Source: Trichodelitschia bisporula (Eukaryota). Taken from it: 64,000 nucleotides of DNA. Where the stretch lies: positions 169,873-233,872 of the forward strand of contig ML996689.1 in NCBI GenBank assembly GCA_010356995.1, written 5' to 3'. Both the position numbers and the translations under genes were made by a program. Shown piece after piece: positions 1-6,500 of this stretch; the stretch's first letter is position 1, and every line of letters starts with the position of its first letter. Under the pieces are notes generated by a model that ran no database searches, was not told the origin of the DNA, and saw only the letters and a program-made list of their open reading frames with translations.

Positions 1-273
1 TGGGACGCCGGCTCGGGAAAGGCGCTGCAGACGCTCGAGGGCCAGTCGGATATCAACGCCGTGGCATTCTGGCAGGACGGCAAGCAGTTGCCAGGTTCCG
101 GATCGGATCCTCCACGTTTCAGAATTGTTGGGGAATGGATGACCATAAGTGCGGAAAAATGTCTTTGGCTTCCAGTCGAGTATCGCAATCCGCTACATGT
201 CGCTGTTCATGGAAGCAAGGTTGGCTTGGGGTATTCGTCTGGTCGAGTGCTGTGCATGGAATTCATTTGCTAA
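1..273 (+). CDS. 3' end of a WD40-repeat protein, probably a NACHT-WD (HET-E/NWD-like) NLR; 5'-truncated by the window edge
   Basis: Frame 1 reads WDAGSGKALQTLEGQSDINAVAFWQDGKQL...GEWMTISAEKCLWLPVEYR...VAVHGSKVGLGYSSGRVLCMEF*. This is a WD..G..LQTLEGH-type repeat followed by the LWLP.EYR...G..SGRV tail typical of fungal NACHT-WD proteins. The NACHT domain itself is not in the window. Confidence 0.8.
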   Translation, partial: WDAGSGKALQTLEGQSDINAVAFWQDGKQLPGSGSDPPRFRIVGEWMTISAEKCLWLPVEYRNPLHVAVHGSKVGLGYSSGRVLCMEFIC

Positions 274-1670: not shown

Positions 1671-2582
1671 ATGGCTCGTCCCTTTAGTTCCCGAAAGCGT
1701 GATCTTGTCTACTTGATCTTTTTCAGCATCCACCTCCCCGTGATCTTTGGTGCCTCTCCCTTCCCCGTGGGTAGATCGCAATCCGGCTAACTGCTCAGCT
1801 GTCGATGCCGTCGCGCTGTATCCGCCCCAGCTGGTGCCCGGGTGGATGGCCGCGCTGCGTAACTTTTATATTACTACGTATCAGGATCGGTTTTTCATTG
1901 CGCCACCGTGAGTTGAGTCAGGTGTGGTCGGTTGGACCGGGTCGGGTAAAGATACGTACCTACTCCAGAAGTGTGGCATCTACCTCCGCTCTATTGCCGC
2001 AAACCATACCACTTTTCTCATGATTCCCATCTTATGGTCGACGGCAATAGAGGGGAGGTAGATCCCACACCTTTGGGGTAAGTAGGTATCGTCTATCCAG
2101 CCCGGTCCAACTGGTCACACTCGTTTCCGTCAAGGGAATGGCAATCGGATGTATGCTGATACCGCCAGCGCCTGGTTCAAGCTGTACATCTGGCTCGAAG
2201 TGTTATACCACGCGCCGCTGTCAGCATGGGCCGTAGGCGCGCTCTGGCGGGGTAAGGCTCCCCTCCCGGGTCCCGCGGAAACAAGCTGATGAAGCAGATG
2301 ACCCCAAGGTCCCGGTGCACCTGCTCGGGTACGCGGTGCAGACGGCGGTGACGACCGCGACGTGCATTGCCGAGTATCTGAGCTGGGAGGACTTCAGCGC
2401 GGAGCAGAAGTTGCAGCTCGGGTATTTGTATGTGCCATATCTGGCGGTTGGTGAGTGTTTCTCTTTGTTGCTTGGTTTGTGGGAGGCTGATGGGGGTAGC
2501 GGTTTTTATGGGCGTGGATATGTTTGGGAGGCTTTTGGGGCAGGTGGAGAGGGCGAGAGGGGGGGTGAAGAAGGTGCAGTAG
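1671..2582 (+). CDS. EXPERA-domain (TMEM97/EBP-like) integral membrane protein, 5 exons
   Basis: Exons about 1671-1749, 1799-1907, 2169-2251, 2298-2450 and 2500-2582 splice to MARPFSSRKRDLVYLIFFSIHLPVIFAVDAVALYP...YQDRFFIAPPAWFKLYIWLEVLYHAPLS...DDPKVPVHLLGYAVQTAVTTATCIAEY...LYVPYLAVAVFMGVDMFGRL. GT-AG boundaries carry CTAAC/CTGAT branch sites. Confidence 0.85.
1922..2120. repeat. Long imperfect inverted repeat (foldback/MITE-like) inside intron 2 of the EXPERA gene
   Basis: Arm 1922-2008 matches the reverse complement of 2033-2120 at about 80% (17 substitutions and 1 gap over 88 positions), with a 24-nt loop. Confidence 0.9.
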
Positions 2583-2947: not shown

Positions 2948-3595
2948 TTAGCCGCGCTCACCGCGCTCACGACGCTTTGCCAGAAGAATCCGGAAGAGAA
3001 CAGTGTTCTTGCGTTCGCGGTCGCGGCCCTGTGGGCACTCGTACATCTTCCCGTCAAAAAGGTAAAAGCTCATTAAGCCGTGAGCCACGTTCTGGAGCCT
3101 GTGCGTATTTCTTAGACTTGAATGAAGGCTTCAGTTTGGGGATATTTACTCAGGGTTCTTGTCATGCCACTCTGCCCCTCTGCCATCCCAGCCGTCTTTG
3201 CCATCCCAAACGGACAGGACAGTCTCCAAGACTTTCTTCGGAAGGTCATAGAATTCGACTTTGACGTCTTCGGTCCATTTCGCTTTGATTGTGATGAGGT
3301 GATTGATGATGTCCTTTGCCGAAAAGTCGCTCGCATCAATGGAGATTACAGAGGAATGGTATACGTCCGGGACAGCGACCCTCCATACATCGGCGCCAAA
3401 CCCCATTGATTTGTTTATGCGTATGGATTGCGTTGCCCTAGCGCGAGGCACTGAGTCCGCAAGTCCATTTAGGAAGCATGTCAAAGGCTCCCCTTTTGTG
3501 CAATTCTTCAGGATTGACTGCCACTCGGCGTCGTCAAGAATGGGTTCCCACTCATCCACTCTCGGCTTATACAACTTCGAAGCTGTGGAAGACAT
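2948..3595 (-). CDS. Hypothetical protein of about 198 aa, 2 exons
   Basis: ORF MSSTASKLYKPRVDEWEPIL...HDKNPE continues in frame across a 51-nt GTAAAT...CTAAG...CAG intron (3099-3149) into LQNVAHGLMSFYLFDGKMYECPQG...ERG*. No family recognised. Confidence 0.45.
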
Positions 3596-6500
3596 ATTGT
3601 TGAGTACAAGCAAGAGGTTACGGTAGATTGTGGGGTTGTGTTGCGGTGGTCGAGCGTGCTCTGCCGCAGTAGGTATCTTCGTTCTATTTATGCTGTATCT
3701 AAGTCATGACACAGGGCGAGAAGCGAAGCTCGCGTTGGGTCCTTCGTAGATAGATGCCAGATCTCAACCAAATGACGAGCTCCTTTCGATCTGTCAGGGT
3801 GATACTAGCCAGCTAGCAGAACCAAAGATTGCGTCGGGCCAAAACCCTCCGTTGAGGGAAAAGTCCGGCGGTAGAACATATTCATCTGCGGTAACTGTCA
3901 GTCCGAGCAGACAGACGACGAGGACTGAACCATGCTTCGTTGCTAGCACCAGGACAGCGGTGGAAAGCGCGCTCTCCGAAAGCTGCCACAATTCACTTCG
4001 TACCGTCAGAAATGGTCCCACAATCACCGATAGAAAACCCTCATCCACTAACCTTTCAGCCCTATCAACAAACACGTCAGCCCGCCGCTCCAAAGAACCA
4101 CTCACCAGCGATCTATCAAATTCGACAAACGCGTCAGCATCCACGAGGTGTCGTCTCCGTCTCCCGGCCGGCCACCACTCGGCCCGAACCGGCGGCCGCA
4201 GATCCGCACGGTCCGCGGATCATCATCTCCATTTCAGCTGCTCCAACGCCAGACATGCCGCATGCCTTTCAGCGGCCGCAGGCAGGCGAATGTCTCCATA
4301 TGTAACTGCTGGCGAATGATGCTGTGCGATGTGGCCCATTTGACCGTGGTGCCTTGCAGGTGCATGCAGTGCGCGCTAGCCGGATTGGGGACGTGATGGT
4401 CCGAGTGGTTGACACGTCAGAGATGGGGAGAGTGTACGCAACGTATATTATGGTTGAGGCTTGGGCAGATGGCTTGGGTGGGAGAGCCTGGTTTAAAGGT
4501 ACCGTAGGCCCTGGCGTGGAATATGTTTGTACTGCGTAGGGCTGGTGGAGGAGTTGCGGGCGGAATTGAGCATCGAAATGTCGTCGCGGGAACGTACAGG
4601 GAATGCGGGAGTATTTCCAATCAGCATGCGTTTGCGGAACTGTGTGCATATGCTAACCCTTGAAGGTATCTACATCTGGTTCACCGTGCTGTGACTCAAA
4701 ACCTCAACGTCGACGTCCACTCATTGGGGCTCGCTTCACCGCACAGCGTCCCAAATTTGGGAGCCTGGCTGGACCAAAATCAACCGCCTTCTTGCTGCTG
4801 TGTATATAATCCCGCGTCGTTGTCGGCGGGCGAACTCTTGCGGGAGCTGATAACTTCGAAATTAGGTTGTAGGGTGCTCGGTTATGGCGCGACTGCGTCA
4901 TGTTATTGGGTCCCTTTCGGGGACAAGGTCTGTCTTACGCCCCGAGGCCATCGCGACTTCCGTTGGCGACAACCTTTGCCCTTGGCTCTTGTATTGAAGT
5001 GAGCTTGACATATGTCTAGACGATACTGGCACCAATACTCCAAGGCCACTCTGAAGATTATGACGGCTGAACAGGGTTGGCCGCCGTTGAACGTTGCATG
5101 CCGCAAGGTAGGGTTGGAAACCCTCAGCTAAACCAGTGCAAGGTATCTTGAGCCTCCGATACATCCTCCGACTCGAAAGCTGCTGGCCTAAAGGTTGTCA
5201 GCATCCAGTAGTAGCAGCAAACAGGATACAGGTCAGACCTCTCTCGTGCATTTGACGGCACGCACTTGACGACGGCCGAAGCGATACGCCAACCTTCCCC
5301 ACAGCAATCAGACAAACAAACTCCTCCCGTACGAGCATCTAACAAGATGCAATAAACATCCTTCGGATGACTGTCACGGCTCAAAAGGCCTTCGTCCTGC
5401 TTCAGCATAGACTGTTCACCACTGTCATCGCATTGGCGTCCCCCGGCATCGTCCAGAGTGAACACATCCTCCATATCATTCAGCCCCGCAGAGCCTCACA
5501 TCACAAGACCGCATGACCTCTCCCTTGATAATCAACAGCTGGACACCCGCGTTAAATGTATCACACAGCAGCCTTCCTCAGTACGACCAACTCGAAACCC
5601 GCTCCGCGGCAGCCTCGCGTTGCCGTGCCGTATTGCCGCACCGCATCGCCCATCCGATCAGGCTGCCTTGACTCACAGTCCCGTTTGTGCAATATCCGAT
5701 GACGGAACTTAGACGCAGCGAGAAGGCCATGGAACCACAATGATGCAGCAACCTTTGTGTATCGACAGAGGCAGATTTCTGGCCACGGTCGCCTTGTTTG
5801 CTGGGAGTGCCCCGTCTTTGTTGAGGAGACATGGGGCACACAGGATCGAGCAAGCAGCACTTGTTCAGACACGTCCATCACACCACCATAGCCACTGGCG
5901 CGCTCCACATGACAACCGCCGCGCGCGCGCAATTGACATCCAGTCCCACTCAATCGTGGCGCCGACCGCTCCCGGACTGGGCACACGACCGCTTAAACCC
6001 CAACCCCAATCCCAACGTCGACAACTGTCCAGCAACTCAGAGCTCAAGGCAGCAAGCAACTAGCTCGTCTGCTGCCTACAGCGCAAAGAAACCCCAAGCG
6101 ATATCGCGCGATTTTGCCGCAGATCGTCCAGCTCAGGCCCGCTACTAACGAGGCAACCGCACCATCGCAGCTGAGCTCGCTCCTAGACGAGATAGTGCCG
6201 AGGCAGCCTTGTTGCTGCTCTTCGGAGATGTTGTAACAAAGAGCGAAGCAGTGCCATCTCCACTGGCGGGCCTGAGCGGCGAACACGCCGTCCAGGACAA
6301 ACCCCGACTTCGCTGCGACACGCTTTGCCTGGACTTACGAGGGATGTGCGGGGAGCGTGTCCGTCCCGTGTGGGAGCGGGGGTCGCGATCCCTCGCCCGC
6401 ATAGCCTCGTCCTTGGACAGGGTTTGCCGACTTTGATGAAATCGATAACGAAGGCTGGGCGGCGGAGGGACGGACGTCTTCCTACCGGATACAGTTTGTT

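Follow-up and report, generated by a model that had tools for sequence, protein, structure and literature searches.

The question raised by this locus is why a single intron of the EXPERA/TMEM97-like gene of the dothideomycete Trichodelitschia bisporula extends to 261 nt and is occupied mostly by one large hairpin, when the others in the gene measure 49, 46 and 49 nt, and whether that hairpin is a mobile element, a regulatory RNA structure, or a passenger without a role of its own. All coordinates refer to the window, i.e. the whole 64-kb stretch of DNA that was analysed. The first-pass annotation had put most introns at 45–75 nt, and in the EXPERA gene, the one place where this was looked at, the three other introns fall within that range.

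Four public sequencing runs contain the stretch, i.e. two DNA runs of one sample, probably that of the source genome, and two runs of another study (X3 and X4), and the contigs of the runs were aligned at 80% likeness. X3 and X4 were guessed to be RNA, and the presence of spliced contigs proves that these runs contain cDNA. The gene model proposed in the first-pass annotation proved correct, as its five exons are linked, across four GT..AG introns and in an open frame, by a single RNA-derived contig (run X4, record 25).

1671..2582, + strand: EXPERA/TMEM97-like gene, from start to stop codon
1671-1749, + strand: exon 1
1799-1907, + strand: exon 2
2169-2251, + strand: exon 3
2298-2450, + strand: exon 4
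2500-2582, + strand: exon 5
2149..2151, + strand: start ATG of the public 112-aa model, within the 3′-terminal part of intron 2

The coding sequence comprises 507 nt and encodes 168 aa, and the sole stop codon of the spliced frame is the terminal one. The EXPERA domain (Pfam PF05241) was recognised in exon 4 with an E-value of 7.7e-8 and 33.1 bits, which is above the gathering score (cut-off 25.7), and in exon 3 with an E-value of 2.4e-4 and 21.8 bits, which by itself is under the cut-off. Homologues of the protein carry EXPERA or TMEM6/97 annotation. Exon 4 and a public hypothetical EXPERA protein of T. bisporula match at 100% identity, and the nearest other protein homologues show 78–80% identity over this exon. 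The public protein for the locus (P0001) is 112 aa long with the N-terminus MYADTAS, which reads from 2149, just 3′ of the hairpin. Accordingly, the public gene model (2149-2582) is without exons 1 and 2, and it appears truncated, since the RNA contig joins five exons and the first two of these show conservation across homologous loci; exons 1–4 were matched in nearly all of the 31 homologous loci described below.

The surroundings of the gene contain several further features. The EXPERA start codon is preceded, at a distance of 229 nt, by an RNA gene.

1324-1442, + strand: full-length 5S rRNA gene (Rfam RF00001, 54.1 bits, model positions 1-120)

The 3′ end of the 5S gene (1400-1464) was covered in the DNA runs by many short contigs, 80–97% alike and of very high depth, a pile-up that dispersed 5S genes or pseudogenes would be expected to produce. 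Apart from the 5S gene, the only Rfam match within 1200-2700 at E-value ≤1 was a chance-level snoR134 in intron 3 (18.9 bits, gathering score 40). A degenerate tandem repeat with an 18-nt unit (CCAACTCCACCCGCGCCA, 4.8 copies, 80% matches) occupies 760-844, within the spacer that precedes the 5S gene, and the first 272 nt of the window (1-272, + strand) hold the end of a reading frame of which the peptide WDAGSGKALQTLEG is, by eye, WD40-repeat-like. On the downstream side, a 5,618-nt RNA-like contig of X3 (2583-2900, + strand) continues beyond the stop codon in exon 5 to a point downstream of 2900 and heads toward an apparent convergent minus-strand gene (~2950-3600); a long 3′ UTR or overlapping transcripts are possible.

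Intron 2 was confirmed at the 261 nt and the borders claimed for it (1908-2168), as RNA-derived contigs of two runs skip exactly this length. It is composed of the following elements.

1908..2168, + strand: intron 2, 261 nt, phase 2, donor GTGAGT and acceptor CAG; 1907 joined to 2169 in one contig each of X3 and X4
1921..2008, no strand assigned: left arm of the quasi-palindrome, 88 nt
2009..2032, no strand assigned: unpaired 24-nt centre, with the hexamer TCATGA (2018-2023) exactly on the symmetry axis
2033..2121, no strand assigned: right arm of the quasi-palindrome, 89 nt
1959..1968, + strand: acceptor-like CCTACTCCAG in the left arm
2078..2083, + strand: donor-like GTAAGT in the right arm
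2156..2160, + strand: branch-site motif CTGAT (branch A: 2159), 9 nt upstream of the 3′ splice site

The foldback, the arms of which were delimited by the fold and by arm alignment, covers 201 nt (1921-2121). Folding supported the strong hairpin announced in the first-pass annotation: the MFE of intron 2 is −140.6 kcal/mol vs −81.7 ± 4.9 kcal/mol for shuffled sequences (z −11.9), none of 200 dinucleotide-preserving shuffles was as good, and the sense strand of the stem alone reaches −126.6 kcal/mol (z −15.8). The stem consists of 77 pairs, or of 79 when a 2-bp mini-stem in the loop is included, and the fold of the intron contains 71 Watson-Crick and 8 G:U pairs. When the left arm was aligned with the reverse complement of the right, 70 of 89 columns (79%) were identical, with one indel and 18 substitutions (8 of the G:U type, 5 of the A:C type and 5 transversions); with the slightly narrower boundaries 1922-2120 used originally, the 17 substitutions and 7 G:U pairs reported before were reproduced exactly. 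Outside the stem, 13 nt before and 47 nt after it add up to 60 nt, so that the earlier claim of a normal intron length (~62 nt) remaining after removal of the hairpin also stands. In the 64-kb window, the hairpin is the sole inverted repeat of at least 30 nt with arms at most 400 nt apart.

All four introns of the gene are skipped at their GT..AG sites in contigs of the RNA-derived runs. The branch-site consensus of fungal introns is YTRAY, and each of the four introns contains exactly one such motif (CTAAC or CTGAT), located 8–9 nt ahead of the 3′ splice site. The sole YTRAY of intron 2 is the CTGAT listed above, i.e. it lies in the tail that follows the stem.

The age of the intron was separated from that of the hairpin by comparison with relatives. 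A scan of metagenome contigs with a homologue alignment resulted in 31 fungal loci, 30 of which hold both exon 2 and exon 3. An intron at the same proline codon and in the same phase 2 (CC/GT...AG/N) was present in 11 of these 30 loci, and the site was uninterrupted in the other 19. The occupied loci represent 7 distinct introns with lengths of 53, 54, 56, 72, 104, 179 and 254 nt, none of which resembles the hairpin or folds better than 100 mononucleotide shuffles (z −0.65 to +1.9). As the phase-2 site is common to 11 of 30 loci and the hairpin occurs in none of them, the intron is old and the palindrome is lineage-specific. The 60 nt outside the stem are comparable to the orthologous introns of 53–72 nt.

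Intron length at this site differs widely among the relatives. The two longest introns, of 254 and 179 nt (L026:527-783 and L030:710-891, from one metagenome), fold in an ordinary way, and introns 1 and 3 of the same two loci are long as well (112–189 nt).

The hairpin is single copy at the 80% likeness applied, since 1502-2900 is covered at ≥80% by precisely one contig in either DNA run, the contigs of which total 29.4 and 30.9 million letters. The tail of the 5S gene draws many contigs in the same alignment, which indicates that dispersed repeats down to 45 nt are detectable by this approach. No second copy was found elsewhere in the 64-kb window, and a blastn query with the intron against 102,216 nt of the 31 related loci returned only matches of 12–22 nt (E-value 3.1). 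The absence of an evident target-site duplication (TSD), remarked upon in the first-pass annotation, was confirmed, as none of at least 3 nt was found at any of 12 × 12 boundary pairs (± 6 nt around the stem ends); shuffled flanks yielded a direct repeat of at least 3 nt in about one third of cases. In addition, TA was missing at the stem boundaries on both sides.

The explanation to which we give somewhat better than an even chance is that intron 2 carries a single-copy, lineage-specific DNA quasi-palindrome of 201 bp, which originated in a one-off event within an ancestral short intron and is a tolerated passenger. The palindrome would most likely have arisen once at the DNA level, either through an inverted duplication (fold-back or template switch) or as palindromic filler during break repair, and its arms may since have decayed neutrally to ~79% identity. 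Fold-back inverted duplications arise from DNA break repair or from replication template switching. The element resembles them in its two inverted arms, and such an origin fits the single copy, the absent TSD and the short, asymmetric 24-nt spacer. The origin is the least secure element of this account. After an arm divergence of ~20%, a repair-type junction signature is not readable, and an extinct transposon family would give the same picture.

The rival that survives best, although we consider it unlikely, is that the hairpin is a relic of a MITE or foldback DNA transposon the family of which is otherwise gone from the genome, and which would have inserted into a 60-nt intron to become a neutral passenger. 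MITE insertions in introns occur, e.g. in plants, and the element is MITE-like in its size (201 bp), in its nearly full-length inverted symmetry with terminal inverted repeats (88/89-nt arms, 79% identical columns), and in lying harmlessly within an intron. Moreover, its removal restores a length that is normal at this site, which is easier to reconcile with a complete unit having been inserted than with resident intron sequence having been duplicated. However, two features that define MITEs are missing here: there is no further family member, i.e. no second copy at ≥80% in ~30 Mb of contigs, in the window or in the 102 kb of related loci, and there is neither a TSD of at least 3 nt nor a TA at either boundary. 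The first-pass annotation had suggested an old MITE that is tolerated because it folds out; the toleration and the folding out are retained in our interpretation, and the assignment to MITEs is not.

If the element is indeed a passenger palindrome of one-off origin, it would have no role of its own and would exit the transcript inside the intron via ordinary splice sites. The RNA stem would close upon itself, so that the spliceosome would meet a near-normal short intron (a zipper effect), and the same pairing would bury the donor-like GTAAGT. When the stem is closed, the linkers of 13 nt (5′ splice site to stem) and 37 nt (stem to the branch A at 2159) sum up to 50 nt. The palindrome is probably tolerated because the stem leaves only these 50 nt between donor and branch point: by zipping the splice signals together and hiding its own donor-like hexamer, it would allow a fungus with introns of 46–49 nt to still remove one of 261 nt.

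Zipper stems are described in long introns of Saccharomyces cerevisiae, with RPS17B as the prototype, in the accessible portions of two articles (PMC2536676, PMC12350175), and the 50 nt of linkers found here lie within the positional rule as it is given in the accessible text of PMC12350175. In yeast, according to the same text, the stems are short (threshold 6 bp) and several have been mutation-tested, whereas the stem in T. bisporula has 77 pairs; furthermore, it belongs to a DNA palindrome of which either strand folds and which is seen in a single species, and its zipper role is one that we infer.

The view of the hairpin as a product of DNA rather than of RNA evolution is addressed by the two strands and by the divergence of the arms. 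The antisense strand of the stem folds at −119.0 kcal/mol (z −11.8), i.e. nearly as well as the sense strand. Between the arms there were 13 transitions vs 5 transversions. Eight of the transitions leave G:U on the sense RNA and five leave A:C, a split that does not depart significantly from the neutral ratio of 1:1 and that bears out the earlier observation that the mismatches show little strand bias. Repeat-induced point mutation (RIP) was rejected as the source of the divergence, with 0 of 13 transitions in CpA/TpG context. The pattern is that of a DNA palindrome eroding through ordinary mutation. The ratio of 8 to 5, together with a sense strand that folds better by 7.6 kcal/mol, leans slightly, in a faint and non-significant manner, to RNA-level constraint.

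Selection at the RNA level is the core of a second rival, by which the stem is a splicing element, either as a required zipper or as a switch that exposes the GTAAGT at 2078 and the acceptor at 1968, leading to an mRNA with a premature stop or to retention and thereby tuning EXPERA. We regard this as improbable. The cryptic sites do exist as claimed in the first-pass annotation: CCTACTCCAG, the last base of which is 1968, faces GTAAGT (2078-2083) almost directly across the stem, and the donor-like hexamer is paired with 1958-1963 with one mismatch. The hypothetical exon between them (1969-2077) is indeed 109 nt long and frame-shifting and brings a stop at codon 81, and retention of intron 2 would bring one at codon 64. 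Both of these early stops, the pairing of the cryptic donor within the stem, and a geometry that satisfies the yeast zipper-stem rule are in line with a selected splicing element.

On the other side, no joint at 1968 or 2078, nor any other inside intron 2, was present in the contigs of the two RNA-derived runs, from which rare forms can drop out. The putative upstream mini-intron (1908-1968) is also without a YTRAY motif, which leaves the acceptor at 1968 without a branch site, and the idea of a structure-gated poison exon is thus weak on sequence too and was not upheld. Neither are the homologous introns structured, and both strands of the element fold alike with G:U vs A:C near 1:1. Moreover, a 77-bp stem at −126 kcal/mol would be unlikely to open under physiological conditions. 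Nested introns considered by eye (GTAAAG at 1946, GTAAGT at 2078, CAG at 2100) were rejected, as no combination offers a branch motif or a length that would work.

An additional point in favour of a splicing element is that an unspliced contig was found for intron 2 only, and in one run. In X3, this contig spans 1878-2198 at a depth of 91.8 vs 1646.7 for the spliced junction contig, depths being poor measures of abundance. Unspliced contigs were absent over introns 3 and 4, where the bins are explained by exon cover alone, and an untranscribed stretch upstream of the gene has zero cover; for these reasons, the unspliced piece is likelier to be pre-mRNA than contaminating DNA. It gives a weak hint that removal of intron 2 may be somewhat less complete than that of its neighbours, or that retention may be regulated.

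A third possibility, which we hold to be hardly probable, is that the hairpin of the excised intron or of the pre-mRNA is a Dicer substrate, i.e. a mirtron-like milRNA precursor or a source of hairpin-siRNA. In fungi, the precursors of milRNAs are hairpins of about this size, and in this case a long, nearly perfect stem is transcribed within an expressed gene. Against this, Rfam returned no match to the hairpin at E-value ≤1, and no other genomic stretch of at least 45 nt is 80% alike, which argues that there is no long trans target.

The least probable proposal, that of a remnant of an introner-like element or of an internally symmetrical (stw)intron of the Hypoxylaceae kind, is largely refuted: the symmetry, the predicted hairpin and the missing flanking short duplications are in common with the introns which the accessible text of PMC8469720 describes as multi-copy, at new positions and with inverted repeats of 45–55 nt at the intron termini, whereas the element of T. 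bisporula is single copy with no near-identical family, lies within an ancestral intron (11 of 30 loci, 7 distinct sequences) that it consequently did not create, unlike an introner-like element, has a stem that is set back by 13 nt from the donor end and by 47 nt from the acceptor end of the intron and is without AG at its ends, and leaves the outer donor GTGAGT, branch site CTGAT and acceptor CAG intact and used in one step by the single junction 1907 to 2169, from which it follows that intron 2 is no stwintron, although contigs cannot show intermediates. In the accessible part of the supplement to the introner survey PMC9860276, T. bisporula is mentioned a single time, among the genomes that were screened.

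A functional sense hairpin, acting either as a mirtron-like small-RNA precursor or as a very stable zipper whose occasional failure causes retention and so tunes the sterol-related EXPERA gene, is altogether doubtful. If true, a DNA palindrome would have given rise to a regulatory RNA that is young and specific to this species.

For the passenger palindrome that we prefer, the consequences are of three kinds. A striking intronic hairpin of 200 nt turns out to be a clean negative: being single copy, missing from the orthologous introns and normally spliced, it does not belong in a tally of MITEs, introners or splicing switches. The practical upshot is a correction of the EXPERA gene model, as the exons missing from the public model are conserved in homologues. 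Finally, the locus would provide a natural case outside yeast in which a short-intron fungus tolerates a 4- to 5-fold longer intron when the extra sequence zips shut.
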